The position numbers were made by a program, and so were the translations under genes. A stretch of 57,639 nt of DNA, filler included, from Sphacelaria rigidula (lineage: Eukaryota): the NCBI GenBank assembly GCA_964200075.2. It is 6 parts of 6 records of this genome, joined end to end, with 100 filler letters (N's around TTAATTAATTAA, not from the genome) between each part and the next. Parts side by side here need not be neighbours in the genome. Positions count along the whole stretch, not along the records: positions 1 to 9,525 come from CAXNAA020008297.1; 5 more parts are not named here. The stretch is one strand, 5' to 3'. A model generated the notes under the pieces. It ran no database searches, was not told the origin of the DNA, and saw only the letters and a program-made list of their open reading frames with translations. Below are positions 1,003-57,639 of this stretch, in pieces; the first letter of the stretch is position 1, and the number at the start of each line of letters is the position of its first letter.

Positions 1003-1895
1003 CACAAGCGCGAGCATTTGCTATTCATAGGACTTATGGTTCCCTCTCCAGAGATGTGTGTTGCTCTCTCTGCGCGCGGGGCGTCTTTGTGTTGAATACC
1101 GGGCAGCTAAAAAATTCGCGCCCGGGCTTGTTCTGTACTAAGCTGGAGACCGGTGGCAGGCTGGGCGAGAGATCGGTGCTAGGCTGTTGGTGCTGTGATA
1201 GTGTTGTGCAATTTATATCTGGCATCCTGGGACGCTGTGCCCACACGGAAAATGGTTACATCAGGCGCTGTGTTATTGCTTTGTTTTTAGAGCATGAGTT
1301 GGTGAACGCCGTGGGTTGCTTGTCCCAGAGAAGGTAGGTCTCTCGTTTGAGAGCAAACATGTACCACACTGAAGGTCGTGGGGAAAAATTCTCACGGATA
1401 GCAAGCCTTCAGACTAGACTGGGTGTGGGCTCTCAATAGAGAGACGTTGTCATGTGTTCGATTAGTGGACGAAACAACATCTCCGAGAGTCGATTGTATA
1501 TGGTGCCGATCCAACAGAGTTACCTATCCTAACGGTCGACGGATCAAGACAAATGACGTTGCGGAACACTTGAAACAATGGAGTCGCCAGCTATACGAGT
1601 ATTACTACGGAACGATGCGTGTTGCTGAACGGCCATTGGAAGAACGTGTATGACGATGTCGACCACCGGAACATTCCTCTCATTTATGCGCCATTATACA
1701 TTCGGCAAATTCCGATTATACCTCGTAGGTAATGGTATGGATTCCGAAAGTGTTGCCCCGATGAATACGTTGAATGCGAGTACAAACAGTGTGTAAACCC
1801 GCCACGATTCAAAATAATGGTAGTTTGGTGTTTGTTTAACTCCGGATTATATATCCAACGATGGACTTCGGCATATGAACCCCCAGGCCATCAAG

Positions 1896-2001
1896 TTGAA
1901 GGTGTCTCTGATAGGAGTAGGAACGGTGTTCCAACTCGCAAGGGACACGTGATTAATGGTCAAACGGCAAAGGCAAGCAACAAATGAATACGCTCCCCCC
2001 C
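1896..2001 (+). mobile_element. 5'-truncated LINE 3' end with C7 tail and 16-bp TSD
   Basis: Aligns to the LINE end at 40270-40376. Flanked by CCCCCAGGCCATCAAG (1880-1895) and CCCCCAGGTCATCAAG (1997-2012). Confidence 0.85.
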
Positions 2002-5000
2002 AGGTCATCAAGGTTAGTAACCTGAGTCAGGCATAATTTTTCAAGTATAACTGATGCCGATTCCACCTATGGACACCTGCTGCGCTAAATGTCGGTTTCG
2101 AGAAATCGGCATTACTTTCACTTCAAGTGGAAATGGGGTGAAGAGCCCTCACTGAATCAGATGCTAGACACTCGATCTGGTGAAGAGGTTGTGGGATGTT
2201 GCGTAGTGGACAGGAGTTATGCAACCCCAAAAACTTCAGGGACGTACTGAGCACACATCGGTGCGGGGACCTTCCGAACAACATCTTTAATATCCGCACA
2301 CCTATTTCAGTCTCGATAAACATCGCATCGGTGTGACTCATGTCTTTTAGATTTTGCTGGATGGCAGAGGCCTTGCTTGCGCTTGCGCATGGTGGGAAGA
2401 TCGCCCCAGTGAACGCATTATGCATTGTTCTCCATTAGCCAGCCTGTCTGACCACCACGGAGAAGCGTTGGCATGATATTCCGTTCTCGTCTCCAAGCAA
2501 CTTCATAACTCTCCAATGAAGAAATTTTTTGGATCGAAGATGGCGTAAAAATCCTCGTCGCCCATCTTCTTTCGCAGCGCCATGATGACTCTTGTCTGCT
2601 CAACGGAGAAACGCCAGTAACACGGTGCCATAAAATCAAGGTGAGATAATCCTGTAGCTTCAAGGCATTTCATCGTGTCATTTTTTCGACAGAATGGTAA
2701 ACGGACAGGGTCTGAGCAACGCGAAGAAAGTAGCTAGCGTCAGCGCCGTTGTGGAAGCTTCGCTTCTCCCACACACGATCTAAGCGAACTGATTAAATAC
2801 GTGAGCCCGTTGCCGTACCCACTCACATTCCCCAACATCACCAAGCATACGTGGGAGTCGAGGAAGGGCTCCGCATGAATCTAGGTCGATCTGCAGGCTA
2901 GGCAACGTTGCAAGCAAGCGTACCAGGCACGGTATTCGTGTCCTCCTTGCGCTATTCTCCGCAGCTGTATGAAACTGCTTGGCACATGAGAACCCATCTC
3001 CGAGCTTTGTCACTGTCTCAACTAAGCGAATGTATGAAGCGACAGACGCACATACAACAAGAGAAAATGTGTACCTCACTAGAGTGATGCCGCGGCGGGT
3101 GCCATGCGACCGACAGGAACTCCAGGGTGCGAAAACAGGGAAGAAAGAAAGTCGTCATCAACACCCAATATATCAATATCAAGTTCATCTGCTCCATTGT
3201 GCTCTCGCTGCCAGCATTGCAACTGCGAAAATCAAAACAAATCCCGTACAGGACGTCGGAGCTGACAGGGCAATATAGAGGTGTGCTGCAGTGGCCTCAG
3301 TACTTGCGTTGTTGATGCCGCTGATGTGACTCGGTACGTACGGCCTAGCCAAGGCAAAAAGTGTTGTACCGGTGGCTCTGCGAGGACACATGTTACACGG
3401 TACAGTACTCGAGTTTTCAGTACGCATCCCGTCTCTTCGCGTACTATGACACTGTTGTGTGCGACCTCTGCACCCTGTCGTCCGATATCATCACGTGGGA
3501 CGGTGCTCTGAGTCAGTGGGTCGCACGAGATCAAAACTGCTGCATCGTGAAGAAAGTGAAGTGACGCTGACACGTCGCGAAAAACCCGACGCATGCGTTC
3601 GAAGGAACCCTACAGCGGCGGGACTGTGTGGATTCGGAATTGTGTATAAGGCTGCTTCCAAACGCTTGGCACCTGTCCGTCGGCTTTTCCATTTTTTTGT
3701 CGGAAAAACGGACAAGACGACAGTTTCGTGACAAAGGTTTGGGATGTTCCACGTATCACCTCGACATATCACAATGACACTGCAGCGCCCAGCACATGCA
3801 TTGATCACTCCGGAAGACAGCAAGATCATGTAAATATATATCAAATATACAAGGTCCCTTGCCAGCCTTCGGCCGGCGGTGGTCCCTTTCTTTGCGGGTC
3901 ACGCCTGACGCGTTATAAACAGCCAAGCCCTCGTGTTTCGTTGTGTGGTGAAGAGTTTGAGAAGGAAAAGGCGGATTACGGGTGGTGACGGTTATAGGGA
4001 CGGAAGCAGAAATTTTCTATAATAAAGTTTCGTGTTGTCGTTGTCAGATCGATGATATTCTGCACTTCCCGTTACGTCATTATAAACGGTATCTTGGTTA
4101 GAAGGGGGTGTAGTAATGTGTCGTCGAAATCAAATGTTGGGATGCATGTTTCATTAGAAGAAATGCGTTGAAGGGTGTGGAAAGGGTAACACAATCCGGG
4201 AAGAAAGAATCGATTGCACACCTGAAGAAGGTGTAGCGTTGAACATATTCCGAGAAAGAACAACAGTACTCGTACATAATCGAAGGAAAGTAATCGGAAT
4301 TGAAGATAGCTATTAAGGGACGCCCTCCAAAGCTTACATAGTCGCAACACGCGCCGTCTTCGTACATCAAGTGAGACTACAACCTATACATTTATATCCC
4401 CGAGTTAGGTAAATTACGCCCGCCGTTTACTAGTTTGACTTGAAAGTTATTGTTAAAGCCGGGTGTTATGGCAAACAGATTTTTGGCCCACCGATTGTTA
4501 ACTTTTGGGACGTTTGACCCACCTTTTGACCCCCATACAGGGAAAACCGTCAACAAACGTCTCGGACTCTTTGCATCACCCCACAGAGGGGAGCCTAGTT
4601 TGCCGCAAAAAACAATCCCCCTGTTTTTTAAGGGTCCGGTGATGTGGAAGCCACAGTGATATAAAAAGAACATACCAATGATGTCCCACGCATTCCATTT
4701 TTTTCGGGAAGAGCCTCCCGCTGTCATGTCTTTGTGGAACGAGAGTTACTTCGCACTCTGGCGCCTCGGGTATACCACACGTAACAACGTTTTCGTGAAA
4801 TTGAGAGTAGAGTGCTGATTGAGAGTGGCTTTGATCATTCGCTTTAACTTGGCCAATTTTTCATTCCGTGTGCTTCTTTTTGCCTTCATCACTGGCGTGT
4901 GCTTATAGCTACACCTCGATATCCTACTCAGGGATATCAAGGGCCTCAGTGGCAAGCCACTACAGAAAGCATATTGGGCCTCGTGGAAGGGCATTTCGGA

Positions 5001-7548: not shown

Positions 7549-9471
7549 CTATTATGGACCATCGGTAGGGAACGAGGCGCGGTGATCGGGGGCGACTATT
7601 ATACCCATCAACCTGTCGCTATGTGCACGCGTCTTCTGAAGGGCGTGCGGTTTACTTGTTGGCTGCGATCTGTTTGTGTATTGGCTGACCTGTACGCTGT
7701 ACTCTGAATGCATATTAGTAGGGCCCGCGGATTTGTAGTCTGGGAAGTGGACTGAAAACAAAGTCATCTGCCCGAACAAATCGACCTAAAAATCAATATG
7801 CAAACCGTGGGAAAGACGGATATAGTTCAGCGGCGTATCAGGTAGCCCGCTTTTCCGACGCTTGGTACTATGGGATGATTCCCCACGATATCGACCATTA
7901 TCCCCTACAATAACGCTACCCTTGAACTAGCCTTTCGACTTTTCACCAGTTCCGGAAGGAATGAAAATACCAGGACAAACCAGGAAGGGCCTTAGTCGAG
8001 TCATGCGAATCAGCCGGGGACAATTCCGACGCCTGTCTGCTGTTTTGCGGCGCACTACTACAATACGGTGCTGATTGTCTCACGGATGAGACTCGAGTCA
8101 TCCCCATGATTTTTCACAATGATCCGCTCCTGCTATTTGACCTCTAGCACCGTTTCGGAACAATTTCACCGACTGACAGTCCAAGGGTTTCTGTGTTTTC
8201 GATGAGGGGGCGTGCAGCTCCCCCGATTGTCAGCGAATGATTTCTAGATCAACCATGCGTGTCTCCTGGGGTTTTCCAGGCCTGCCAAGATGCCTGAAGA
8301 GGGGTGAGGTGATCATTGTTCCTGTTCTGATTGGTGGAATGATCCACAAATCTCACCTACAAATTGCCCAATATCGCCCGCCTGGAGGTGAAGCTATATT
8401 TCACCAGTCGACCATCAACCATATACACGCACAAAAAAGAGGGTGACTTTTGCTCTCTACGCAACGTCGATGAAAAACACTGAGTAGAGACAGAACCAGT
8501 GTACACTGCACACGGTGTGCAGCGGAGAACAAGGGCACAGTACTACTTCTGTACTGTTTGTTTACTTCGCTGTATTTGGAATTGTCCGTCAGTACGGCAC
8601 ACTACACGAGTACAGCAGCAGTGCGGTATCATAAGAGTACAGTTGAGATGATATGAAATGCAGTGTAACATCAAAACATGTAGGAGGTGCGCTAACTACG
8701 AGTTGGAAGTAAGACTAATGCTGAAGCAGGCGGAGAGTATGATGCTTGGATACATCCCAGCGGTGGTGGTAACCAGGGGTGCACCTCTTACTTGCGCATG
8801 ACACCATCTACATGTACCGCTCACTCGGCATATCGATATGGACACTCACGTAACTTGGGCAGAAAAAATGGTCATGGGTCCGTATGTACAACTTCCGTAA
8901 AATGATTCAGCACCCACCTGCTCAGATAAATGCCGTGTTGTGCCACTTGAAAAACAACAGATCCCAAGCCTATTTGATCATGGGCGATTTGGGCAATCTA
9001 GGGGGACTGGAGACTGGAGGCCAAAAGGCTGACGAAAACAAGCCCTATGAATCGAGATTCCAACTAATGTGAAAATGTCTACTACCCCATCCGAAGCTAC
9101 AGCCCGGAGCAATGACTGTCAACACTCTTGATAGTACGTTCTTCGAATTGCTAGATACAGACGGCAGGTGAACGTTCTGTTACCTAGCATTCAGCTGGGT
9201 CTCTCAACTGATCAATCTCGCTCAATATTGATATTTGTCCCAACCCGCTATACTGTCACGCGAGCAGTGTCGTATCAAGATTTCTGGGGCGCCACAAGCT
9301 GTGTCTCAAAGTTTTCTGTGTGCGGGTAAACTTGCGGCGGAGCGACTTTCGTTTCGGCCCTGGGGCTAGGTCGACAAACATTGGAACGGTCAACTCTTAG
9401 ACAGCGAGCGTCACCTCGAAACAGTTTCACAGGCTGACGGTCCGGGGACATACGGGGGTTTCCAGGGGCCT

Positions 9472-9525
9472 GGGGGGGGGTGTACTCATGATCACGCATG
9501 CCATAGTCATAAGACCATTGACCTC
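9472..9525 (-). mobile_element. 3' end of second LINE subfamily with C9 tail (cut by contig end)
   Basis: Minus strand reads GAGGTCAATGGTC...ATGAGTACA+C9. Closely similar to 19090-19149 and alignable to the LINE end at 40324-40376. Confidence 0.7.
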
Positions 9526-9625: not shown

Positions 9626-12600
9626 CCCCCCCCCGACTGAATTATTTTGGTAGCGGCATCTCATCATAGAGTTCACTACTGTTTAGTCCAGAGGTCAAAG
9701 GACGGATGGGCGAACGTGCGCTAGCCCATGTCACCGGGCTGATCAAAACAGATAGGGTTGTTCATACTCATCCTACGTTTGAACGTTTGTTTACCGTGTG
9801 TTCAGGGAGGTTTCGGCTTCCACGAGGATACATGTAAAAGCGACAAGCACGCCAATGGGTTTGCTTGGAACAGCAATGGAAATGAACTCACTTTCTTCTC
9901 GTCGAACGCAAGTCCAGCCTTCTTCAGTAGGTACGCCATCTTTCGATCCTTCTATCGTTATCGTTCTTGAAAGAAGAGCGTACGTACTTGGATACGCCTT
10001 GAACGGAAAGACCTGTGACGAGGGTCGGCACCTCCGTGACCTCGTTCACACCAAAGGCAGTTGTGAAACGAAACGGTCCCACGGATTGTTGCTCAGCTTG
10101 AACCCTGGGCGAAGATCCTCACGTATGTGTTGAACGCGCTTTCCGCGTACCCCGTCCACGTTCGGTCTTGAAGCGCTTTACACAAATGTGTACTCGGTAC
10201 GGGACGGTACGGGAAGGTACGGGACGGTACGGTGATCGTGTCCTTGAAGGCCCCGAGGAGACGAAGAGAACGCGGACAGTTTTACACCAGTCACAATACA
10301 GTACAATAGTACCACCTCGTCAACTAGCTCAGCAAACAGTACAGGCCAGCAATACCAAGCCTCAAAAACTTGCGCTACAGGCTGTAGCCAGCGATTATTA
10401 CACTCGAACTGCCTTGAATGACAACACAGTATAGTATGCGATATGTAAGTACGGGGTAGATGATGAGGGGGCAGGAATGCGGCGCTCTCTCACCACTACT
10501 AGTCCGCGCTCTCTTGATGTGTTGTTATTTAGCTACTACTGCAACCAAGTGTCCAAGCACAGGACCGGGCAGTCTTGCAAGGGTCAGCGGGCTGACGTGT
10601 GATGACTCGGACAATAATTTGGAAATACTTTCGGGCCCCTTCGCTGTAAAAAAAAGAAGTAAAACAGCAAACAGCAAACAGCGAAACAGCAAAACAGCTT
10701 TTTGCATGTGCACTTTGAACTCTTGAGTAGAAGAGGCGGAATGGAGCAGGGCAAACACTTACCGTGTCTCTGTGGGACCCGGCAGTCGTTCAACTGTAGG
10801 ACTCTATTTGAAAAGCCGATGTCCTATCCTGTGTTGTCTGTTCATCGATCCAAGAGAACAACAACAGTACAGGAGACAGTAGTACTGCTGGAAGAGTCTG
10901 ATACAATACATGGCAGGATATTGCGGCACTGAGTGTTTTCTGTACAGAACCACCATGGAACGGATCCGGATCCGATTATTGTTCAGACTCGTATCAAGCG
11001 AGTACAATCAACCATTGACAGATTGTAGCACAACGGGGGACTCTGCTGCCAACTGGGGCAAACTCTACCAGCTACGCTACTGATGGAACGACGCAGCCCT
11101 ATACAGCCATGCTGCTGGCTGTATGTTGGTGCAGAACAGTGGGTCTCTGAAAATCACGCACGATAACAACCGCAACAGTACGACATAAAACTGAAATCCA
11201 ATGCACCAAGTACTGTCTGTCCGTAGTTGCCCGATATATTTACCTACACAACCGACCGCCATACAGGATCCCAGAGTGGTCGACCTCGCGTCGTTCACGC
11301 CCTCATGCGATTACTTGTATTCACCCTGACACACAGGCTGGTCTCTGCCTCACCTGAATATTGCAACACTGCATGCTATCCGCGCATGCCACCCGCGCAG
11401 GTAAAATGGGGGTACGCACAAGAGACATTCGAGGGCCCGGCGGCACGCAAGGATATCGATAAAAAACAAAATACGAAGATAACATACATTACATCTTCGG
11501 GGAGTTGGTCTGGTTCTGGGATGGTACTCGCCAATCACAGGCCAATTATTGGATATCTGGATAAAAACCGGCGATTATCCCCCCGTTCCCCCAATAGAAC
11601 AATCAAGTCGCCGGATAGATACGTCTGAAATTGATTGTTAACTCACTGTATTGTATTGGCCTCGTTTCCACCAGTTGTATCGAGATGGGGTTTACGGCGC
11701 TGCCAATCGCGTGTTGTATTCCTTTCGATATCCTACGTGACGGCTATTGACATTACTACACGTCATACAAGTTTGGGTTCCGATAACCGAAATTTTGGAT
11801 CCGTAGACGAAAAAACAATTATGGGGAATTCAGGAATCAAAGTGGATCACCTAATTTCCCCAGAATTGTTTCTTCATCTGGGACCCCAACGTTTGGGTTT
11901 TCGGAAGTGTGGCGTAATATCGATAGTTGTTTTCGGTCTTCGACAGGCAGCTGGGACGTAGCCTGGACCAGAGAAATCTAGGAACATCTGACCTACAGAT
12001 AGATCCAGGCTCGACTACGAGTGTTGTATTCATATCATTTTCTTGTAGAGTGAAGGTGAAGAAAATATTGGGGAGGCAGGTCGACCAACGTTTGAATCAG
12101 GTCGGATTTTACTCGTGGTATCTCCCAGAGGGAATGAAATTCCGGAGAAAAAATGACCAAATTAACTAATAAATTAATTAAAGATTGTTTGAGGATGGAT
12201 GGTTGGATGGTTGAGGATGGATGGTTAATTTCATTTCTTGAACAAGGGAAAGACTATATCAATAGGGCCGACTGTTTTAGGTGAAGGGCGGGGAAAGGGG
12301 GGCGCGCAAGGCAGGGTTTGTGGAGTGTGTTGCACGAGCTCGCAGTACCGTTGTGCGTTCGTTCATAGGTGAAGACATTATCAAGCGGTGCCATTGCCCG
12401 TTTGCTACTACTGATGATGCTGCTGCTTCCCTAGTCTGTTGATAACAAGGACAGCTTTCAGGTTAGATGGAACGAGTAGTGATTGTACCGACGTTTCCTT
12501 CAAATTCAAGTCCCTTGCGCAAGACTTGGCTTATAACCAACCTCCCTTATTGATACAGACTTGTCGTCAGTCTCCCAGCCGAGGTCAATGATTCTCCTGA

Positions 12601-15435: not shown

Positions 15436-15901
15436 CTGGTTGCGATGGCAATAGATACGGCACAACCACGCGTTCCTAGGTCAACGTCTGCACAGGCTAA
15501 GAACGGCGAGAGAATCGATTATGATGAGCAACGTGGCTCAAGGTTGAGCTGCATCCTGCCAAGAATATTCGGCCCGAAGCGTGCGGATTGCGTTGCATGT
15601 AGATGACAACTTCGAATAAGTTGCTTTGTTTTCTGGTATCGGCACTTGCAGAGATAGCCACGGGTTACACACTGTATCATGAGTGTTTCACCATAGGCGT
15701 AGGGGCGGTATCCATTTGTTGCTTGCCTCAGTCGTTCGACCATGGGCCGCACATCCCTTTCGAGACGGAGGACCGTTCCTACTCCTAATAGAGACATCTC
15801 CAACATTTGGGAGCTCATTACGCTTCTTCCGTACATTACACAAAACCACAGGCACCGTAGGAAAGGTAGGTACCCGTTACCGGTTTTCGGGACATGTCAC
15901 A

Positions 15902-16196
15902 CCTACGATACCTACGTTACCACGGTATTTCGAGATACCAGTACCTACCGTACCCCCTCAATCGGGTATTTTCAAATGTCATGCTTACGATACCTACGAT
16001 ACCACGGTATTTCGAGATTTCAGTACCTACCGTACCCACTCAATCGGGTATTTTCAAATGTCATGCCTACGATACCTACGATACCACGGTATTTCGAAAT
16101 TTCAGTACCTACCGTACCCGCTCAATCGGGTATTTTGAAAACTCTCACCTACGATACCCACGCATACCACGGTATGGGATACCCCGGTAAATACCG
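15902..16196 (+). repeat. 82-bp tandem array (about 3.5 units), subterminal in the TIR element
   Basis: Units start at 15902, 15984, 16066 and 16148 (CCTACGATACCTACGATACCACGGTATTTCGAG...). Confidence 0.95.
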
Positions 16197-17245
16197 GACG
16201 CGATGCACTCTCGACGGTGCAGCAGCTGGTCCCAACTTACGCAAAGGCCAGAAGTTCTCGGAGCAGGTACGTCTTGTTTTCACAAGTAATATTTACTCAG
16301 ATTTCCCCCTGATTTTCGCGCTTGTATCTGTTCGAATGAACCATGGGAACTCCATCCAACTCATTCTCAGCTACCACCGCAACCCTGCAGCATCGAGTAC
16401 CAGTTGAGCATAGGGATAGATACACTGCAGTAGTTGGGTATGCTTTTTTTTATATTTTGTTGCTCATCTTGTTCCGTGGTAGGATCAGCGACGGGACTGC
16501 GTGGTGCCGTGGGCAACCGAGTTGCGCACACCCTCATGGACAGTGCAGGCAGTAAGTACAAAGCTGCACGTTGTCGAAGTCCTTTTCGCATCGCATTGTA
16601 AGCAGGAAAAACTTTTAGTCCCGGGCTGTCTGCGCTGCACGTTGCCCGCTTCTCAAGATCCTACCTTACGAAACACGACGCACACACGCACTCACGACAC
16701 GCTGCTCGAGAGCAGTGCAGATAGTACAGGCTGTCTGTAGGAGGCGACCTGAGGTTTTGGTCGTATATTTATGGTTGATTTTTTCGAACAAATCAACAAT
16801 AACACTGACCCTAACCCTAACCCCGACCCAAGGCGTACGAGACCCTCGGGCAAGGGATGTGCATAGGTTCCCCTAGGCAAAGTATGCGTTGGCAGGCCTG
16901 AAATCAACGCCGCAGGCGCCGATTTCGACTAAAACGCATTCTGGACGAGCTGGGTCCACTGCTCACCTGTCTCAAACCATATATAATTCCCAAAACTTTC
17001 TCAATTCTAAAAACAAGTAGTCATTTCGTCAACCATAGATACACGACCAAAGCTTTAGGTCTACTGGTCTGTACTGCACACGAGTGACCACGTACCGTTT
17101 CACGAATTTCCCTGTCTTTTTTCGGTCGAAAGCTTGAAATTTGCTTGGACTCAACTCGACGAAAATGAGCGATTTTCGCTCGAATCGATTCCACCGTCCC
17201 ATTTTTCCGATCGAAAAAAAAAGTGTCAAGGCCGTGTCTTTTTCA

Positions 17246-17435
17246 GGGCGTGTCTTCAGCACATCATTCCCAAATCGAAAATATGCGGTGGAAAAGGAAA
17301 ACTTCGGTCTGACAGGTGGTAATTTCAACCATCGTCAGTTATGTTGAAGATGGTTGAAATTACAACCTATAATATCGGGATTTTTGTTTTCCACCGCACT
17401 TTTTCGATCTACAACTAATGTGCTAAAACACGCCC
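17246..17435. mobile_element. Tourist/PIF-like MITE nested in the cargo
   Basis: Long imperfect inverted repeats GGGCGTGT.TT.AGCACAT...GCGGTGGAAAA / TTTTCCACCGCA...ATGTGCTAAAACACGCCC, flanked by TCA and TAA. Confidence 0.55.
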
Positions 17436-17554
17436 TAAGTCACGCCCTGAAACGCTTCTCCGCACTGCCGGATGACAGTTTTGACGTCGTTGTAGAGGGT
17501 GTGGCAGGTACCCGGTATGGGTATTTGTGGGACATCGCATACCCTACTGATGCC

Positions 17555-17870
17555 GACCCAATCGGGTACTTTCAAATGCCATACCTACGATACCTACGAT
17601 ACTATGGTATCTCGAGATACCAGTACCTACCGTACCTGCCCAATCGGGTATTTTCGAATGCCATACCTACGATACCACGGGATTTCGATATACCAGTACC
17701 TACCGTGCCCGCTCAATCAGGTATTTTCAAAACTCATACCTACGATACCTACGGTACCACGGTATTTCGAGATTTCAATACCTACCGTACCCGCTCAGTC
17801 AGGTATTTCCAAAACTCATTTCGACGGCACCCACGCATACCACGGTACGAGATACCCCGGTAAATACCGT
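17555..17870 (+). repeat. Second array of the same about 82-bp unit, same orientation
   Basis: Same motifs as 15902-16196 and the same end block GATACCCCGGTAAATACCG. Confidence 0.9.
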
Positions 17871-19089
17871 GGGTACGCTCGGTGTGGTACCTTACCTACG
17901 GTTCCCGTGCACAAAACCCTTCCACATATCTTATCCCCGTTTTGTTCCACCGTCTGTGGCCACCATCTATCTCCTAGCATAGCCTCGTTTTCTCCCTACT
18001 GCCCGATGCATCAAACGATTCCATGTCACCTTCGCTTACTTCCTGCCTTTCCCCCTCTAGCACGTCCCGTTCCTCCTTGTATAGTTTCTTCTGCCACTAA
18101 GTGGGTCGCACTCTATTCCTCCGCCACAGGGGCAACTCTGTGCATCTACTTCCTCCTCCACTCGACTCCTGGCATATCCCTCTTTCTGCCAGGTCTAGGT
18201 CCCCCACCCGAAATCGCAGTTTCAATTTTTTCGCCGCGTCCATTGGGTCATGCAGATATGTTTTATCCTTATCCCCTCTCTCAAGCCCCCGTACATCTTC
18301 AGATAATCTTCATCGTCTAGTTTACGCCTTAGCGTTTCTTCTTCCCTCAAATCCATCATGCTTCTTACTTCTGTCTTGTGCCCCTTGCCTTCGCCTATGA
18401 ACATTATCTCGTCTTTGTTTCCTCCTATCTCCTTCCATACTTTCTCGACTACGCTATCCCACCTTATTTCAGCCTGCCCTTTCGCTACTTTCTTCTACAC
18501 AGCCCTATCAACTTCGGCTGGCAATCTCTTGCTCTGCATGCCCTTCACGCTATATTGCCATCGCAATTTTCTTTTGTCTCTGTTCAAAGTGGGTATATTC
18601 TCAGCTCTGCTCTCAATGCTGTATTACTCGTCGTTTTCGAGCATTCAAGTATTTTCTTAGCTGTTGTCATCTGCACTGTTTCCAGCTTCTGCACCAGCTT
18701 CGCGTTCCCCTCCCATACTTCTCCCGCATATTCCAGTTTTGGTACAATCACGTTCATTAGAATACATGCCGTAATCCTAGTATCTAGGTGCGAGTCTCTG
18801 AGGATCACGTCCATCCTGCCTGTGCCTGACCCTTTCCTATTTCTTCACCCATGTGTGCACCCCAAGAACAGGTTTTTGATATCTCTACGCCAAGGTATGT
18901 ATACTGGTCTACGATCGGCAGTTCCTCTTCCCTCACTCCAATTTGAACTCTACCGAGTTCTTCTTGCGTTCGTTACACAAAAAGTACCGCGCATTTGTCA
19001 GGGTTCGCTGTCACTCTCCATTTCCCAGTGTATTCTAGCGCCTTGTTCATCTGTTCCTGTGATCCTTCTGGTGTTTATGATATCCCCAT

Positions 19090-19149
19090 GGGGGGGGGGT
19101 GTACTCATGATCATGCATACCATAGTTATCAGACCATCGACCTCGCATC
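19090..19149 (-). mobile_element. 3' end of second LINE subfamily with C10 tail
   Basis: Minus strand ...GATCATGAGTACA+C10; matches 9472-9525. Confidence 0.7.
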
Positions 19150-19249: not shown

Positions 19250-19325
19250 CACCGTTCCTACTCCTGATAGAGCCACCTTCAACATTCCGGCGCTCGTTAC
19301 GTTTCTTCCATACATTACACAAATA
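19250..19325 (-). mobile_element. Short 5'-truncated LINE fragment (3' end lost at contig edge)
   Basis: Matches 15773-15845 and 40220-40303. A G8 run lies at 19334-19341, just beyond the truncation point. Confidence 0.8.
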
Positions 19326-20141
19326 CCCAATGTGGGGGGGGAACGGACGGACGTACGGACGGTTAGTGGGTATTACCTTTGTTGTTATTGACCTCACATG
19401 AAAACCATTCCGACATCTGCGCAGTACTTCTATCTCCGTAGTGGGCATCTGATGCAGACGCCTCCTGTGGCCACAGACTAAACTACCCAAAATGAGGTGA
19501 AAGGAAAAATCAGTGAAAACTAAAATGTGACTCAGAAAAAAATCACCACAGGCACGATACAAACAGAATAAAAATGCTGCTAACCTCATAAGATCCGGTG
19601 CCACAGGCGATCATTCGGAGTCGAATATTCCACACGTTGGACAATATATATATGGTCAATAGATGCAATAGACAAAAAAAAATACTACAAAAAGTATGAG
19701 CCTACTGTACCTATTGCCGGCCGGCAATACGTGCAATAGGTCTATACTTTACGCAGTATTTTTTGTTCATCGCAACCGTTCACCATATAATGTCATGATG
19801 CAGGACGTAATACTTGGTTATCTTCCACCACAGCATCACATCGCATCATATAACATGACAAAACGCAAGCTATCACAATTAATACAGCACACAAAGCAGG
19901 CATGTGATATCAAACAGAATCAGCAACACACACGCGCGCGCGCGCGCGCGCCCGGCAGTATCATCAATATCACGTTTGAAAAAAACAAACATGAAAGTGA
20001 ATAAATCGTGTGACAGTTTATAAAATCTTGAATCCAACCCTCCAAATGACAACAACTGTCTGCAAAGAGGGTGACAAAATCTGTGTTTGGTCCATGTGTG
20101 TACGTACACGCAAAACTGCGGAAACGTCCCTTGTATAGTTA

Positions 20142-27636: not shown

Positions 27637-27712
27637 ACATGAGTCGATCCCTGGAGACGACGACGGAGTCTCTCCCCGCTGAACGGCGCGCAGGAGGCGG
27701 GCGAGCGGGGGG

Positions 27713-27783
27713 CGGGACGGGGGGACTCAGTTGTTGCTTGTCTTAGTCGTTCGACCATTGACCACGCATCTCTTTCGAGACGG
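27713..27783 (-). mobile_element. Very short LINE 3' end with C-rich tail
   Basis: Matches 40306-40376. GAGCGGGGGG occurs on both sides (27703-27712, 27794-27803) as part of a likely TSD. Confidence 0.75.
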
Positions 27784-28122
27784 GCTGGGGGTGGAGCGGG
27801 GGGAAATTGAACCCTGCTTCGTGTCATGACTTTCAAACCCGTCTCTTCTTTTGTGAATTGGGAGGGAACAGCCTACGCTGAGAGGCTTTTCCCCAACTGT
27901 AAAAACTCGGAGTTGAACTCTTACCCACGAATTCATCTAGAATCTTGAAAACAGGGGGGTGGGTGAAGGGGAGGGTGGGGGATATGGAAAGTACGGCAAA
28001 AATCGGAGAGATACAAGGTTCGCCGAGCGGTGTGTTGGATCGTCGCGGGGCTCCGGCGCCTGCAGGATCAACGAGAGGGCCAAACGATACCATGACTCTT
28101 CCTGCGGTATGTTCCCACACAC

Positions 28123-28538: not shown

Positions 28539-29149
28539 GAATATTACTGGACGAGATGATCCAGTGAATAGTGGCCATGCCGACAAAAAAAGGGTCAGGG
28601 TTCGAGACAATTTCAAGACAAAATCAATTGATCAACCCTCCTCTCCTCCCCCCCCCCCCTTCTAGGCCGAAGATCTGTGGAGGAAACCCTCGACAACCTT
28701 TCACGGTTAGGACAAATCATCACGACTCAAAATCATCAAATTCACGATTTCTTCTGCCTGATTGCCCGAAAGNNNNNNNNNNNNNNNNNNNNNNNNNNNN
28801 NNNNNNNNNNNNNNNNTTAATTAATTAANNNNNNNNNNNNNNNNNNNNNNNNNNNNNNNNNNNNNNNNNNNNGTGGGACCTACGGTTTATACAGCATGAC
28901 TACTTGCGCGTCATGGCGAGTCGACTCGTGTAAATGTTGATTTGTCCTAACCGTGTTCCATTCTCTCCCCAAGTACGGGTCTTCTGTCAGAGCCTGCTAC
29001 ATACGAATTACGATGCCCTAAACACGCGGGAGGCATCGTTCGAACGTACTCACTTTATCCTACTACTTTATGACCTCTGCTCACCCTACTCCTCATGCGA
29101 CTGACCGCACACATCACGGGGCTTCGCGCTTGGTGATTGATTGCGAGCC

Positions 29150-29260
29150 TGATCCGACGATAAACCGACGTGCTCCGTCCCGGTTTTTGTAGAGATACGA
29201 GGTCAACGATCATGTGACTACGGTATACATTATCATAGGCACCCCCCCCCCCACCCCCCC
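29150..29260 (+). mobile_element. Diverged LINE 3' end (second subfamily) with C11-A-C7 tail
   Basis: GTGCTCCGTC...GAGGTCAACGATC...GACTACGGTAT.CAT.ATCAT followed by C runs at 29242-29260. Confidence 0.6.
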
Positions 29261-30846: not shown

Positions 30847-32850
30847 CTCAAGCCATCGCACGGTGCAAATGGCCTCGTAGCGGACGAGAAACGCGCTTGC
30901 TGCACACAGTTCCATAAGTTACATCTGCACCGGACTGGACTTGGACATAGCATTTGTCAAAAACGCGACTTGCGCAACTTGGACAGAAGCTATGTTGGCT
31001 GAAGGCATGGCAGCACATAATCCGGTGCTTGCGATTGACAGCGGCCGCGTTGCAGACGAGAACGCCAACAGACAATTGCCGCTAGTACGTCCGACCCGCA
31101 TGATTTCTCGATGTACTGAGGTTTTAGGCAGCGTGAGCATGTATCTACAGTACCGACAGTGTTCAATAAACTAGAAATGTGCACGCTGCTCGGGTGTCTC
31201 GCGTCGTACGTCATCAACGTTGGGACCGGTGCTACCAACAACTTCATACACGCTCCATGTATATTGTCCACTGCCTGTGTAGCCTGTGGCTGTTGGGTAC
31301 GAAGTGTGGATAGCGTGTACCAGCCGCAAAGGTGGCTCCATGAATCGATCGTTTCTTAGTCGTACGGTCGGTGTCCTCGACACGCAACTAGTGGGTCGAT
31401 TTCCCACGGCTGTAGGAGCTGCGAGGAAAAAGGCCAGGGTTAGGGTATCGTGGGTCTTTCGTGTAATGCGTGAGAGGACCGCGTGCTTAGAGGATCGCGC
31501 CGTAGTTCAAAATACCTCAGGATCGACGTTTTTCAAAATCAGTCCGGCCAGTCCCTGCAGGTACTACGTCCCTGACCATAACCCCGACACTAACCCTAAC
31601 CCTAACCCTGGCCCTAACCATAGGGATATTCAAATACCGATGCGGTCCTCTAAGCACGCGTTCCTCTCACGCATTACACTTAGCACGCCCTAGACAGTTT
31701 GACATTCTTTGGTTGATTCGGGAATATGATTACGATACGTGTATTGCGTCTCCGTCACTAGGGGCAGATGTCAATTTTCAGGGGCGCTTGCCAGTATCCA
31801 GATACGCTCCCCCCTACTCAGGTGCGCTTTCCCTTCCCCGGGTGCGCTTCCCCCAACCCATGTGCGCTTCCCCATAGTCAGGTGCGCTTCCCCATTGTCA
31901 GGGGCGCTTGCCCCTAATCCGGGCCGTTCCCCCTTAACCAGGGGTGCTTCCCCATAGTCAGGCGCGCTTGCCCTGAATCCGGACCGTTTGCCCTTAAGCG
32001 AAAAGTTGCCCTTAACCGGGTGTTGCCCTTAACCTGCAACAGGGCTTCTAGATATACACAACACTAACCCTAACCCTAACCCTAACCCTAACCCTAACCT
32101 GTACCGCGTGCCCACAGGCGAGAGACACCTGTATCGTGTGCCCACGAGTCAGAGACACGCGTATCGTGGGTCCTTAGCACGCCCTAGACAGTTTGGCATT
32201 CTTCGGCTGATTCGGGAATATGTTGACGATACGTGTACAGCTCCTCCGTCGCTAGGGGCAGATGCCAATCTTCAGAGGCGCTTGCCCGTATTTAGGTGCG
32301 CTTCCCCCTACCCAGGTGTGCTTCCCCTTACCCAGGTGCGCTTCCCCATAGTCAGGGGGGCTTTCCCATAGACAGGTGCGCTTCCCCACAGTCAGGAGCA
32401 CTTCCCCTTACCCAGGGGCGCTTCCCCATAGTCGGGGGCGCTTCCCCATAGTCGGGGGCGCTTGCCCTTAATCCGGACCGCTTGCCCTTAAGCGAAAAGT
32501 TGCCCTTAACCAGGCGTTGCCCTTAATCTGCAACAGGCCCACGATGGCTAAGGACTGCGTGAGTGTGTTGCAGCTACTGTGGTATCGACACAAAGCACAT
32601 GAGACGAACGCGGACAGGTATTCCACTCGCTGGACTTGGACATAGCTTATGTCCAACTCCAGTCGGGTGGCGGCATTTTTTTACACTGCGTGTAGCAGGC
32701 GCGTTTCTCGTCCGCTACGAGGCCGTTTGCACCCCACGATAGCTTGAACGATGGCTAGGGACTGTGTGAGTGTATTGCAGCCGCTGTGGTGCCGAAGAAT
32801 CGCACATGGGACAAACGCGGGCAGGTAGTCGAATCGCAGCTGGATTCGGT
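30847..32850. repeat. Composite repeat region with inverted arms, internal duplications and telomere-like units
   Basis: Inverted similarity between 30847-30958 and 32639-32746. Direct duplicates 31680-32043 vs 32173-32537 (with GCGCTTCCCC subrepeats) and 32541-32646 vs 32747-32856. (CTAACC)n at 31590-31619 and 32063-32099. Confidence 0.75.
31461..31679. mobile_element. Small TIR element containing telomeric repeats
   Basis: About 38-bp TIR GTGTAATGCGTGAGAGGA.CGCGTGCTTAGAGGA.CGC. The empty site GTATCGTGGGTCCTTAGCACGCCC is visible at 32161-32184. Confidence 0.8.
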
Positions 32851-34756: not shown

Positions 34757-35006
34757 GAGTCATGCCACGGTAAGGGGGGGGGTATTTTGGGTCGTTTCTT
34801 CCACGAAATTATACTTGCAGTCGTCACATATAGCAGCAACGGTTGTTCGAATGCGCTTGCTCCCGATAAACAACGGCGCAGTCATACTTCTTGACACCAC
34901 TTTTACCCAAATACAAGCGCACCCCGAGTGTGTTACGTCCTCTGAACCACCTGTGAGCCCACTTCTTGTGAAATCGTACACCCCTCCCCCTATCGTAGCA
35001 TGACTC
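34757..35006. mobile_element. 250-bp MITE with GAG...CTC ends and 4-bp TSD (Sola2-like signature)
   Basis: TIR GAGTCATGC(C/T)ACG(G/A)TA then a G-run. TSD GTTC at 34753-34756 and 35007-35010. Confidence 0.85.
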
Positions 35007-38188: not shown

Positions 38189-38559
38189 CTATTGTTTTTC
38201 GATTCCAAACAAAGCAGCGACGTTAGGGCGCAATGTTGTGAATCGAATTGTGTACGGGAATTATAGTATACCGGACATGGGTGAAGTATGTGTGGTCATC
38301 AGGAGGGGACGAGGTCTGCCCTCCTCCGTTTTGGCATTGATCCAAAACAAAATAGGCGTAGGCGGCAAATTACGACGAGATAGAGAGTTTCTGTGNNNNN
38401 NNNNNNNNNNNNNNNNNNNNNNNNNNNNNNNNNNNNNNNTTAATTAATTAANNNNNNNNNNNNNNNNNNNNNNNNNNNNNNNNNNNNNNNNNNNNCTCGG
38501 TCGCAAGTGTTTCGCGTCTTCCCTGCAAAAGGGAAATGCCACTTCAACCTCATATTTGT

Positions 38560-40399
38560 ATGAACCCCATTTTCTGGATCCACCGTTATGTGCCGAAAGG
38601 CTATGATGCTAGACGGGGGAATATCGAAATATTCCGACATCTTACAAGAAGTTGCACAAGGATGTACGTTATCACCCACTTTGTTCAAGGTATATATACA
38701 TGGCTTGATAATAGCAATAGAAGAAGAAAGGAAGGGGTCAAGGTGGGTGAAGATATGGTGTCAGGATTGATGTTCGCGGATCAATATGTGGGTATTTCAG
38801 AAACACCAGGAGGATTACAGGCACAGATAAACAAGGCGCTAGAATACACTAGGAAATGGAGAGTGACAGCGAACGTCAACAAATGCGCTGTACTCGACGG
38901 TTACGAAGATGAAATACATCCGGTAGAGTTCAGATAGAAGTGGGGAGAAGAGGAATTGCCGATCGTAGACCGGTTTACATAGCTTGGCGTAGAGGTCTCC
39001 AGAAACTGTTTTTGGGATGCACACATAAACAAAGTAATAGAAAAGGGTAAGACATACATATGCAGAATGGACGTGATCCTCAGAGACCCGCACCTAGACA
39101 CTAGGATCACGAGATGTATCCTGATGAACTTGATCGTACCAAAGATGGAATGTGCAGGAGAAATATGGGAGGGGAGCGTGAAGGTGGTGAAGAGGTTGGA
39201 AACAGTACAGATGGCAGCAGCTAAAACAATACCTGGATGCTCGAAAACGACGAGTAATACAGCCTTGAAAGCAGAGTTGGGAATGTACCTACTTGAAACA
39301 GAGACATGAGGAAATTGCGATGGCAATAGACTAATGCCGAGATAGCCCCCCCACAAAAAGTGCACCGGCACCATCCAACGAACCGGCTGCGATCCCACTA
39401 TTGGGCCTGTTTGCAGCAACTTCGCCCACATGAGAGGCGTGTAGTAGTCCGAAATCAGCTATAACGCCCAAGTGAGTCGCGTCGTGCAGCACGAAACCAG
39501 CTTTGACGGCAGTTATGATCATCGCCTCCGTGCACATTTTTGGCCGGTTTTGGGGGGGGGCTACCTCGGCAGCATTCAATATAGCGTCACGAACATGCAG
39601 AGAAAGAGATTGCCAGCTATAGTTGATAAGGCTGTATGGAAGAAATTACGAAAGGGCAGGCTGGAGTAAGGTGGGATAAAGAAGTCGAGGAAGTATGAAA
39701 TGAGATAGGAGGAAACAAAGACAAAACACTGTCCATAGCTGAAGAAGCGGGGTACGAGACAGAAGTAAGAGACATTATAGAAACAAGGGGGAAAGAAAGG
39801 CTCAGACGTAACGTAGACGAGAAAAGAACACCTGGAGATATATGGGTGGTTGAGAGAGGGGATAGGGATGAAAGCATGTTTACATGGCCCAAAGGATGCG
39901 GCGAAAAGTATAAAATTGTGATTTCTTGTGGAGGACCTGGGCCTGCCAGAAAGAAGAAAGAGATGTGTGGCAGTCGTCGAAAAGAGGAGGAAGTAGATGG
40001 ACAAAACTGCCCCTGTGGCAAAGAAATAGAGAGCAGAACTCATATAGTGGCAGAATGTGAACCATACAAGGAGGAAAGGGACATGCTAGAGGAGAAAACG
40101 CGGGACGCGAACGACGGTGGCATGAAATCGTTTGATGCAGTGGACAGTAGGGAGAAAACTCTGGCTATACTAGGAGATAGATAGCGGCCACAGACGGCGA
40201 AACAGGATGGGGATAAGATATGTAAAAATATTTTTCCATGTATGGAAGAAATGTAGTGAGCGCCGGAATGTTGGAGGTGGCTTTATGACGAGTAGGAACG
40301 GTGCTCCGTCTCGAAAGGGATGCGTGGTCAACGGTCAAACAACTGAGACAAGCAGCAAATGAGTACGTCCCCCCCCGCCACCCCCCCCCCCTCTCCCCC
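38560..40399 (+). mobile_element. Decayed LINE: RT domains, C-terminal Cys/His knuckle, poly(C) tail
   Basis: VAQGCTLSPTLFKVYI and GLMFADQYVG (degenerate FADD) RT motifs; CPCGKEIESRTHIVAEC knuckle; TGA at 40360-40362, then a C-rich tail at 40369-40399. Many stops and frameshifts. Confidence 0.92.
39329..39577. mobile_element. 249-bp MITE (GAC ends, 4-bp TSD), copy 1, inside the LINE
   Basis: TIR core TGCCGAGATAGCCCCCCC, TSD AATA (39325-39328, 39578-39581). The uninterrupted site GATGGCAATATAGCGT is seen in the LINE copy at about 18546-18561 (minus). Confidence 0.92.
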
Positions 40400-40654
40400 A
40401 CACTTCCAGGCTCTTGGGTTGGCGTCGAGTGGCAACGGCACTGTAAAACAAGCCACCAAAACCTAGACATGACAAACACGACACGAAATGGATATAGACA
40501 TAATATTACATAGCTGGATTTGTTTTTCTTTTCCTAACTTTACTTCTTCCTTTTTGTCAGTCACTATGTTTCTTTACTTCTTTTTTAGTCCTTTTCTTCT
40601 TCATTTTCCCGTTTGTCTACGTTTCTCCCGTTTCCGGGGGGGCTTTTTATCCGA

Positions 40655-40965
40655 TACCATATAACAGCCCGAACACGGACATGATAAAAAAGCTAACCAT
40701 CCGTTCCCTCTAACCTATCACGACACAGCCCGGACATAGACATGAAATGGAGAAGCTAACCATCCTTTTTCTTCAATCTACCATACCACACACAGTCCGG
40801 ACATATGTATGAAATAGAGAAGCTTAATCTCCTTCTTCTTCAACCTACCATCACACAGCCCGGACATACATATGAAATAACGAAGCAAACCGCCCCTTTT
40901 CTTTAAAACAGCCGATCACCTATGTTGAGGATGATTGGCTGTTTTAACCTGCCATAACACAGCCC
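40655..40965. repeat. Minisatellite of about 62-bp units x5
   Basis: Recurring ACAGCCCGGACATA..CATGAAAT..AGAAGCTAACCATCC.TT..CTTCAACCTACCAT. Confidence 0.85.
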
Positions 40966-41600
40966 AAAAATGAACGTGGAAAGCGAAAAATAACAGATCT
41001 ACTTTCCCATATCAAGTCGGAAAACAACCGGATTCTCCCCCCCAAAATCATATCAAACGTAAGACAAAAAAAAACTAGTAATGTAAGTAATAGTGTGAAG
41101 GTTAACCACCTTACATGCAAATTGAAAATACAAAATACATAACAAGAACGGATAGGCGAGGGTCATCATCACCCCCGAAATGTGAACTCCAAATGGAGGT
41201 TGGGGCCTCATGAAGAAATACCAGTGAAACCTTATCGGTTCCCAGTGGGCGATGAAATTTTGGTCGAACACTTTCTTGAATTTTCCAACATTAGTGCAAA
41301 AGACACCTAATGGAGGGAAGAGGTGGATAATGCATGACATCAACGTCAAGACCTACTAAACACATGAGACAAACACTTTACCAATGACCGACCACATGAC
41401 CTACGAGAAGGAGCACCAAGCGGTACGTACTCTTCTTGAGATCTTGAAGGGAAAAAGCTGGTACAACGTGTGTAGGAATCGTTGGCCAAGTCTTCGGCAG
41501 CGAAGGTCTACTCCGAAGAATCAGTGGAGTAGCGACCCATGGTGGACCGTACACGGAGTGGGAAGAAGTGATGTACGGAACATGACGATGTGGGTAAGAC

Positions 41601-41853
41601 TGTTCCTTGGCTCAGGCATAGGGTAATGGTTTCAGATCTTTTATTGAAGAGCAACCAAGTTATACTACAACTTGGGAGAGTGCTGATGAGATGGAGGTAG
41701 ATGAATGAGAATGATCAAAGGCGGCGGGCTGCTCTGCTGCTCTCAGCGTACTGCACCACATTTGCACACACTTGACTGTCGGTACTTGTACATCACCCAG
41801 ACCCCCGGTTCTACGTAGATCCCGTATAACTGGGTATCTGAATCACTCGAACA
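41601..41853 (-). repeat. 3' LTR (253 bp, TG...CA)
   Basis: About 11 substitutions and 1 indel versus the 5' LTR by eye (about 95% identity). Terminal inverted TGTTC/GAACA. Confidence 0.97.
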
Positions 41854-41863
41854 CTCCCCCTGA
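41854..41863 (-). promoter_or_regulatory. Polypurine tract
   Basis: Minus strand TCAGGGGGAG immediately precedes the 3' LTR. Confidence 0.9.
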
Positions 41864-42156
41864 TCGGATACCTCAGCACTCAAAGCTAAAAACAAAATAA
41901 GGAGGAAACTCGGCCTTCCAAGCAAAAAACTCTATCACACAACTCCACCGCTTGTGCTCAAAACAAACAGCCCTTTTTCGCAGACGCCCAAGCCAGGGCA
42001 CCTGCACTTAACAACGGGAAACGCCCTACAAACCCATGCCCCACAAAGTAGCGTGAGCGGCTTCACCCAATGTAAGCGCAGATGCATTACGGAAACCATG
42101 ACCTGAAACATCTAGAGCTGACAAATCGAAAGACACACACAAAACAAAATATGTGT

Positions 42157-47667: not shown

Positions 47668-47692
47668 ACTTGCCCAATCGATTGATCATTAA

Positions 47693-47948
47693 TGTATTCC
47701 TTGGCTCAGGCTCAGGGTAATGGTTTCAGATCTTTTATTGAAGAGCACCCAAGTTCTACTACAACTTGGGAGAGTGCTGATGAGATGGAGGTAGATGAAT
47801 GAGAATGATCAAAGGCGGCGGGCTGCTTTGCTGCTCTCAGCCGTACTGCACCACATTTGCACACACTTGACTGTCGGTACTCGTACATCACCCCGACCCC
47901 CGGTTCTACGTAGATCCAGCATTACTGGGTATCTGAATCACTCGAACA
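47693..47948 (-). repeat. 5' LTR
   Basis: Copy of 41601-41853. The inner boundary is 47693 (ends CA) or 47695 (ends TA). AATAAA on the minus strand at 47734-47739. Confidence 0.96.
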
Positions 47949-47951
47949 AAG

Positions 47952-48017
47952 GAGTCATCCTACGATAGCAGGGGGGGTATTTTGGGCCATTTGTCGCTCG
48001 AAATTTCGAGTCAGATC
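47952..48017. mobile_element. Left end of a GAGTCAT-family MITE (cut by contig end)
   Basis: GAGTCATCCTACGATAGCAGGGGGGGTATTTTGGG matches the terminus at 34757-34791. Confidence 0.8.
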
Positions 48018-57100: not shown

Positions 57101-57639
57101 GGTTTTGACCGCGCAGTTAATAGCGTACAGAGTCAGTACGTGTGCGGTATGTCTCCACTGGATACAACGGCAAAAACAGTCAGCGTGCCGTCCCTCTCCA
57201 CTGAACACAATTTACTGCATGCTGCCGATGCTTCCGTTTAGCGTTCCACAACAACACTACAGAGAGTGTGAAGCTATGCTGGCAACACATGGGACGTCAG
57301 ACAGGCGGCACAGACCTCGAGCAGAGTACAAAACACGTCATTTATGCCCATGTAATTTATGTTTGAATTGCCCTGACCAAAAAGAGAAATACCGATAGAC
57401 AGCGAAGTAGTCCACCTGTAGTCCGCCTGTAGGGGAACTACGTGCTTATTTCGACGGCCGCGATTGGTCAGAATGGTAATTCTGCGCCTCTCGGGCCTCG
57501 TTCCTGGCTTAGAATCTTCCACAGGAACTTTCGCAACACACACTTGGTGGGCTTCCCGGCTGCTCTGCGGATAGCCCCCCCCCCCCCCCACCCCCCCCCC
57601 CCCCCCCCGCCGCCCACCCCCCACGCGCCCCCCCCCCAC

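Follow-up and report, generated by a model that had tools for sequence, protein, structure and literature searches.

C-rich 3' tails on a long interspersed element family of the brown alga Sphacelaria rigidula and their possible pairing with G-runs at the target

What could prime the reverse transcription of a long interspersed element (LINE) whose copies end in runs of C and not in poly(A)? The question arises in a 57,639-nt stretch of genomic DNA from the brown alga Sphacelaria rigidula (GenBank assembly GCA_964200075.2), referred to here as the window, which is made up of six equal pieces of ~9.52 kb with spacers of the form N44-TTAATTAATTAA-N44 between them. It holds copies of a LINE family and of a second, short family with a similar terminus (Table 1; LINE copies A to E are so labelled throughout, and C5 stands for five consecutive Cs). 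The best reading of their 3' ends, and in our judgment a fairly probable one, is that a C-rich tail on the template would pair with a G-run at the nicked target.

At all seven element 3' ends in the window a ATGAGTAC-like motif is present and a C-rich run comes after it; a run of A occurs at none of them. Two kinds of end occur: family 1, the LINE (four ends), terminates in ...GCAAGCAACAAATGAGTACG, also given as ...GGCAAGCAACAAATGAGTACG, and family 2 (three ends) in ...GAGGTCAAYGGTC..ACTAYGG..ATCATGAGTACA. Further copies were sought in other assemblies with a 20-nt motif that ends at GTAC and hence places no bias on the letters that follow. In public metagenome contigs this motif hit four loci, three of them true copies with tails reading G C8, G C10 and G CCT C7 TCCTCCC, and in contigs filed under bacterial bins it gave two more, with tails of C9 T C9 TCTTCC... 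and G C13; one of these two contigs (L005) also carries a fourth family-2 copy, which ends ...GAGTACA C5. Locus L004, a chance motif match with neither LINE similarity nor a C-run, was rejected as an element copy. Other scans for copies returned no match in viral contigs, no match for the family-2 pattern in genome contigs, only the L006 contig again and one weak match with a protein pattern, and L006 alone with an upstream motif.

Taking the seven window ends together with these six public ones, a run of at least 4 C starts 0–4 nt past the motif in 13 of 13 cases. The background rate for such a run past a random position is 0.0179 (both strands of the window and of loci L001–L006), and the chance probability of the observed count is ~1e-23. 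Runs of A follow the motif in 0/13 ends, so the poly(A) terminus of an L1-like LINE is absent from this sample. The original prediction, made from the window alone, had placed seven element 3' ends with C or G runs at these positions and denied them poly(A); each end was recovered at its coordinate, with the motif read directly before it, and the denial is borne out.

The runs behave as tails in two further respects. Their length spans 4 C to ~30 nt, and the Cs are mixed with T and some G (copy A reads CT C7; copy C, on the element strand at 27724–27703, reads C6 GTCCCG C6 GCTC), and two copies that are 95.5% identical, L001 and L006, end in C8 and C13, so length varies as that of a tail would. 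The letters past the C-run differ in 13/13 copies, which makes the run a terminal feature, not an internal one. A run of fixed length with conserved sequence behind it would have told against the original prediction, and neither was seen. Immediately after the C-run, AGG was noticed in three of the 13 copies (copy A at 2002–2004, the family-2 copy at 9472 at 9469–9471 on the minus strand, and L003), and the similar CCAGGC lies 8 nt past the tail of copy E; AGG may belong to a preferred nick site. A family-2 copy in L005 (2650–2700, minus strand) reads ...GATCGAGTACG TCTCTCC TA TCGAGTACA C5, with the terminal motif present twice, ~10 nt apart.

By its predicted domains, the element is a LINE with an apurinic-type endonuclease and a reverse transcriptase in a single open reading frame (ORF) of ~1330–1410 aa. 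A 108-aa frame at 38983–39309 matches nine longer proteins, the named ones being from Ectocarpus sp. at ~70% identity, so that the protein evidence, too, points to a brown alga or something closely related as host. The window copies align to residues 821–1328 of P0005 (1328 aa; copy A to 1290–1328), in which Pfam finds Exo_endo_phos at 142–383 (E 8e-15) and RVT_1 at 710–959 (E 2e-32), and which also has a CPCG...H....C knuckle. Intact ORFs starting with ATG occur in L002 (1412 aa) and L006 (1333 aa), so the LINE has recently been active somewhere; in L001 the frame stays open over at least 1253 aa. No ORF1 of at least 60 aa was found upstream on the element strand of L002 and L006, bar one 64-aa frame in L002. 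P0005 ends ...NGQMTKASNK, the last codons ahead of the TGA inside AAATGAGTAC, and the element ORF likewise ends ...KASNK, with its TGA stop inside the terminal motif (ATGAGTAC, AAATGAGTACG), which leaves a 3' untranslated region of ~5 nt.

Within the window itself Pfam found only Copia domains in 140 ORFs (10 of at least 180 aa and 130 of at least 90 aa) and one weak RVT_1 match (E 0.21) in seven frames from LINE pieces. Among solved structures the best relatives are L1 ORF2p and R2, both generic matches; the Atlas likewise gave generic results, and a representative protein search gave 117,653 matches, the names of the 10 clusters examined being only 'hypothetical protein' and 'exonuclease III'. 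A single ORF, a very short 3' untranslated region and a short simple-repeat tail are traits of RTE or RTE-X-like elements, a likeness of shared traits only. Copies A, B, C and D start at different points, while all copies with a kept 3' end share that end; copy A, for instance, is 77.6% identical to 40270–40375 over 107 nt. The endonuclease and reverse transcriptase of P0005, the shared 3' ends and the varying 5' truncation together uphold the initial identification as a LINE.

The two kinds of 3' end had been taken for two subfamilies. Two kinds do exist, but they more likely represent the LINE and a short partner, the two having only their last ~45 nt in common, as judged from four family-2 copies; upstream of this end, no similarity to P0005 was found in the window or in L005. 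Family 2 is thus probably a non-autonomous partner of the LINE. It retains ATGAGTAC although no ORF ends there, which suggests that the motif is retained because copying, not coding, requires it. In a consensus fold computed for the final 100 nt of nine copies, one of 26 predicted pairs is changed on both sides, the sequences being too alike to judge.

The target side of the insertions points to the same letter. Around copy A the two sides of the 16-bp duplication agree at 15/16 positions; the duplication starts with C5, and its first base is the repeated base of the tail, a signature of RTE-type insertion. Copy C has the same sequence, CCCCCCGCTC, on both sides, a possible 10-bp duplication whose 5' junction has 12 additional nt. 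Both pairs of flanking sequences had been noted in the original prediction and are present; the other copies are cut or give no clear duplication. Outside the duplication lie CTCC (4 nt) in copy A and 12 C-rich nt before CCCCCCGCTC in copy C, and these 4 and 12 C-rich nt, like the C8 and C13 of two near-identical copies, speak for a true tail and against target DNA alone.

At each of the four 5' junctions that can be read in the window, a run of 5 or more C lies no further than 25 nt upstream, as compared with a background of 2.3–2.8%. The run is C5 at the start of the duplication in copy A, C10 directly abutting copy B, C6 and C5 in copy C, and C8 at a distance of 4–8 nt in copy D. The C10 next to copy B is the tail of a family-2 copy. 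For that family-2 copy, at 19090, the host site had been described as not obviously C-rich; the sequence past its C10 is itself a 5'-truncated family-1 copy. The fragment at 19250 had been credited with a C8 run 8 nt from its truncation point; the run is present (19334–19341), but the boundary at 19250 is a cut of the piece, and the true 5' end lies at ~19323–19330.

Part of the interval 39600–40700, which spans the 3' end of copy E, is present in 14 public sequencing runs, some of them labelled as algae or protist metagenomes. When contigs of four runs were matched to this interval at 80% likeness, 29,089 to 55,115 pieces per DNA-type run were placed, whereas the run presumed to be RNA gave 3,352. 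Summed word depth, which is not a copy number, is ~15 million at 40303–40339 and ~90 in the unique flank, and from this excess the family is very abundant. C/T-rich tails follow in tens of thousands of pieces from the four runs, the letters after ATGAGTAC reading CCCTCCCTCCCTCCC, CCCTTCCTCCCC..., CCCTTCCTCCCCTCTTCC..., CTCTCTCTCCCCCCA, T C20 AAAACCCTG and C13 GTCT..., among others. Long poly-C loose ends stand just before 40302–40304, and some joints lead backward, e.g. from 40376 to 40293, placing a short copy right behind the tail of another.

Several features of these joints and depths were seen in passing. Many short copies begin at 40293–40307 with poly-C directly upstream, and copy C (27783–27725) begins at the same point; depth at 40303–40339 is 4–5 times that of its neighbours. 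Tandem short units in the joints are spaced by 15–25 nt of C/T-rich sequence. The ~80 nt past the tail of copy E (40400–40487) has a summed depth of 0.25–0.97 million, as compared with ~100 further on, and occurs as a single copy in the window. The family may explain much of the C/G homopolymer load of the genome and its arrays of tandem short copies, features that affect assembly, repeat masking and possibly the formation of G-rich structures.

A route that would link these observations starts with a candidate endonuclease nick where a G-run ends in the bottom strand. The nicked G-run would pair with the template RNA at the C-run just past GUACG, and reverse transcription would begin at the paired runs. 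The C-run itself would already stand in the DNA of the source copy and be read through, the simplest origin for it, and each insertion would then renew the run as tail plus first duplicated bases. Older tails, being C-runs themselves, could become targets in their turn and give rise to head-to-tail arrays. As for the poly(C) RNA end proposed from the start to prime on a nicked G-run, the DNA pattern of C tails, a duplication that opens with a C-run and C-runs at all four junctions fits it, but the RNA step, in which an RNA carrying or ending in the C-run is used for priming, is only inferred. If it is true that the endonuclease prefers G-runs, this would be a specificity new to an enzyme fold that is well studied.

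Several points weigh against such pairing. The evidence is at the DNA level only, none of the sequencing runs being recorded as RNA. Five of the seven Cs in the copy A run are duplicated target, a clean duplication was found in one only of the four window copies with both ends or a usable flank, and the intact public copies gave, as a duplication, no match better than an 8-mer, their 5' ends lying beyond the contigs or within monomer repeats. The T and G in the tails could come from decay or from targets that are pyrimidine tracts. C/G runs are also plentiful in the genome from other sources: 54 of at least 6 nt occur across the 57-kb window, some of them in the inverted repeats of another element. 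If the RNA simply ended in ...GUACG and nicks fell beside existing C/G runs, the runs at the 3' ends would be duplicated target and there would be no tail at all. We consider this unlikely, though it would suit the duplicated Cs of copy A, the C-runs upstream at all four 5' junctions and the commonness of C/G runs, and AGG after the run in three of the 13 copies hints at a sequence-specific site. It is opposed by the extra nucleotides ahead of the duplication in copies A and C and by the tails of copy E, L003 and L005, which at 17–30 nt exceed the 10–16 nt of the duplications seen, while the short copies with poly-C right at their 5' junction would require duplications made wholly of C.

A C-run could also arise without a template, if the reverse transcriptase added Gs to the nicked DNA end before copying an RNA ending in GUACG or if a cellular enzyme added Cs to the RNA. 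Non-templated extension by a non-LTR (long terminal repeat) reverse transcriptase has reportedly been described, as has, it is said, C-tailing of mitochondrial mRNAs in algae, and both count for this origin, as do the C8 and C13 of near-identical copies and the irregular impurities of the tails. Yet the C-run starts of the duplications and the C-runs in the 5' flanks would be left unexplained, the published C-tailing is mitochondrial and from a green alga, and an encoded tail needs fewer assumptions; we judge an untemplated run improbable. If it is true that the alga C-tails nuclear element transcripts, a non-A RNA tail would direct retrotransposition. That the run is not terminal at all, being internal to a longer element, an artefact or chance, we regard as very improbable: two pieces of the window do start or end in long C-runs (9626–9634 and 57575–57637), and the ~80-nt stretch past the copy E tail is high in copy number, but the divergence downstream of every copy and the chance probability given above speak against it. 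The downstream divergence rules out an internal run, and a sequencing artefact (poly-G read ends) is ruled out because the runs lie within contigs, and do so in five independent public records. Pairing of a C-rich template tail with a nicked G-run thus remains our preferred reading.

Table 1. Family-1 and family-2 features in the window, with positions counted along the whole stretch.
Feature	Position	Strand	Details
Upstream repeat of the 16-bp copy A duplication, CCCCCAGGCCATCAAG	1880..1895	+	15/16 identical to 1997-2012
Copy A, 5'-truncated family-1 3' end, ...AAATGAATACG, then CTCC outside the duplication	1896..1996	+	nucleotide and tblastn matches
Downstream duplication copy of copy A	1997..2012	+	15/16 match; its C5 lies within the C7 at 1995-2001
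Family-2 3' end, ...GATCATGAGTACA	9472..9525	-	C9 tail at 9472-9480; cut by piece end
Copy B, 3' terminal 135 nt	15702..15836	-	ends AAATGGATACCG + CCCC (15705-15702); nucleotide and P0005 matches
Copy B body, reverse-transcriptase thumb to C-terminal zinc-knuckle region	17924..19089	-	5'-truncated at ~19089
Family-2 3' end	19090..19149	-	C10 tail at 19090-19099; abuts 5' end of copy B
Copy D (19250-~19326)	19250..19341	-	3' side cut by piece boundary; C8 at 19334-19341 upstream of 5' end
Copy C, element 27783-27725	27703..27803	-	tail CCCCCCGTCCCG at 27724-27713; CCCCCCGCTC at 27712-27703, repeated at 27803-27794
Family-2 copy, at least 150 nt	29093..29260	+	tail C11 A C7 (29242-29260)
Copy E, degraded family-1 LINE, reverse-transcriptase motifs to 3' end	38496..40368	+	interrupted at 39329-39576 by a 248-bp element with inverted repeats
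C-rich tail of copy E	40369..40399	+	C8 GCCA C11 TCT C5
Further LINE copy, 5' region	41071..41602	+	cut by Copia insertion; 78% to L002 element positions 16-337

Some of these copies are interrupted or only partly in view. The 5' end of copy E falls outside the sequence in view, as the copy extends past the start of its piece. In copy B, ~2.1 kb (15837–17923) with no counterpart in copy E part the 135-nt end from the body; 82-nt tandem repeats occur in this interval as two arrays, 15826–16196 and 17508–17869. The LINE 5' region at 41071 is preceded by tandem monomers of ~63 nt (40690–40903), and similar units lie upstream of the ORF in L006 (element-strand positions 1–290). On this likeness, 63-nt monomers upstream of a LINE ORF recall the monomer promoters of mouse L1.

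Other repeats share the window. The element that interrupts copy E is 248 bp long and has inverted repeats at its ends (...GCCGAGATAG C7-9 A(C)AAAA...), and a second copy at 43082–43319 (84% identity) lies inside a Copia reverse-transcriptase region, with C7/G9 runs in its repeats. The Copia element itself (41603–47948; gag, beta-barrel and RVT_2 matches) is inserted in the 5' region of the further LINE copy and is bounded by LTRs, direct repeats at 41603–41853 and 47697–47948 that are 95–97% identical. Interstitial telomere-like (CCCTAA)n repeats occur at 31566–31634, 32052–32120 and 16793–16837. The piece that ends at 57575–57637 closes with C15 A C18 GCCGCCCA C6 ACGCG C10, and just before this stands a GGATAG similar to the GAGATAG and C-run seen in the inverted-repeat element; the piece with the C-run at 9626–9634 starts with C9. 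A repeat with an internal G7–G9 run (...GATAGCA G7 TATTTTGGG...) is found at 34757–34810 and 47952–48005, the two being 78% alike.

Among known systems, mammalian L1 offers a model for homopolymer pairing: its poly(A) pairs with a complementary run at the nick, the tail is made by polyadenylation, and the element has two ORFs. The algal family resembles L1 in the homopolymer pairing and the reuse of old tails proposed here, in a duplication starting with the tail base and in frequent 5' truncation. It departs from L1 in using C/G where L1 uses A/T, in its single ORF and in the origin of the tail, polyadenylated in L1; RNA recognition in L1 is relaxed and directed to poly(A), whereas here a 45-nt 3' end is conserved and common to the partner. 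In this last respect it resembles the stringent-type LINE/SINE pairs (SINE, short interspersed element) of zebrafish L2, in which the two members reportedly share a 3' end with an oligonucleotide-repeat tail and a 3' stem-loop is said to have been shown. Both systems have a conserved 3' end common to LINE and partner, followed by a short repeat tail; the tails of the stringent pairs are oligonucleotide repeats, and the algal alignment, of sequences too alike to judge, yielded no covariation that could be used. The R1-clade LINEs Waldo, Mino, Kibi and Koshi also insert into simple-sequence tracts, but theirs are di- to tetranucleotide repeats.

Text searches of the literature found no retroelement with a C tail, though 'poly(C)' written with parentheses could be missed. 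They agree in this with the original statement that no described example was known, but the principle of simple-repeat tails is already in print, in an account of RTE-related elements in which tails are simple repeats and T-stretch tails are matched by the first duplicated base (PMC6007223). The examples given there include (GTT)n in plant RTE, T-stretches in Au-like SINEs and (CAA)n in animal RTE. As that account describes them, RTE LINEs and SINEs share with the algal family a single ORF with endonuclease and reverse transcriptase, a very short 3' untranslated region, a simple-repeat tail, a non-autonomous partner with a common 3' end and a first duplicated base equal to the repeated base of the tail (PMC6007223). 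In the alga, by contrast, the tail consists of C alone or of a C-rich tract, a type absent from the list of tails in that source, the whole C-run and not a single base opens the duplication, and the ORF has a C-terminal Cys/His knuckle.

Within the brown algae, the LINEs of Ectocarpus are described as CRE, RTE, RTE-X and unknown, with a 600-bp non-autonomous family whose 3' end is common to RTE-X (PMC12477816). RTEX-1 and RTEX-2 with RTEX-N1_Ec32 are comparable to the family described here, by description, in their brown-alga host, in forming the most abundant LINE group there and in having a short partner that shares the 3' end (PMC12477816). The main text of that source on Ectocarpus transposons is silent about LINE tails, and the Saccharina genome paper, in its account of LINEs, gives clades only (PMC4421812); a C tail may already stand in curated libraries for brown algae. 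As a C/G system, the family provides a natural test of the idea that pairing between tail and nick, and not poly(A) itself, sets where copying starts and where a copy lands. The C tail and target are a new variety within the simple-repeat-tailed LINEs, whose principle and mechanism are not new.

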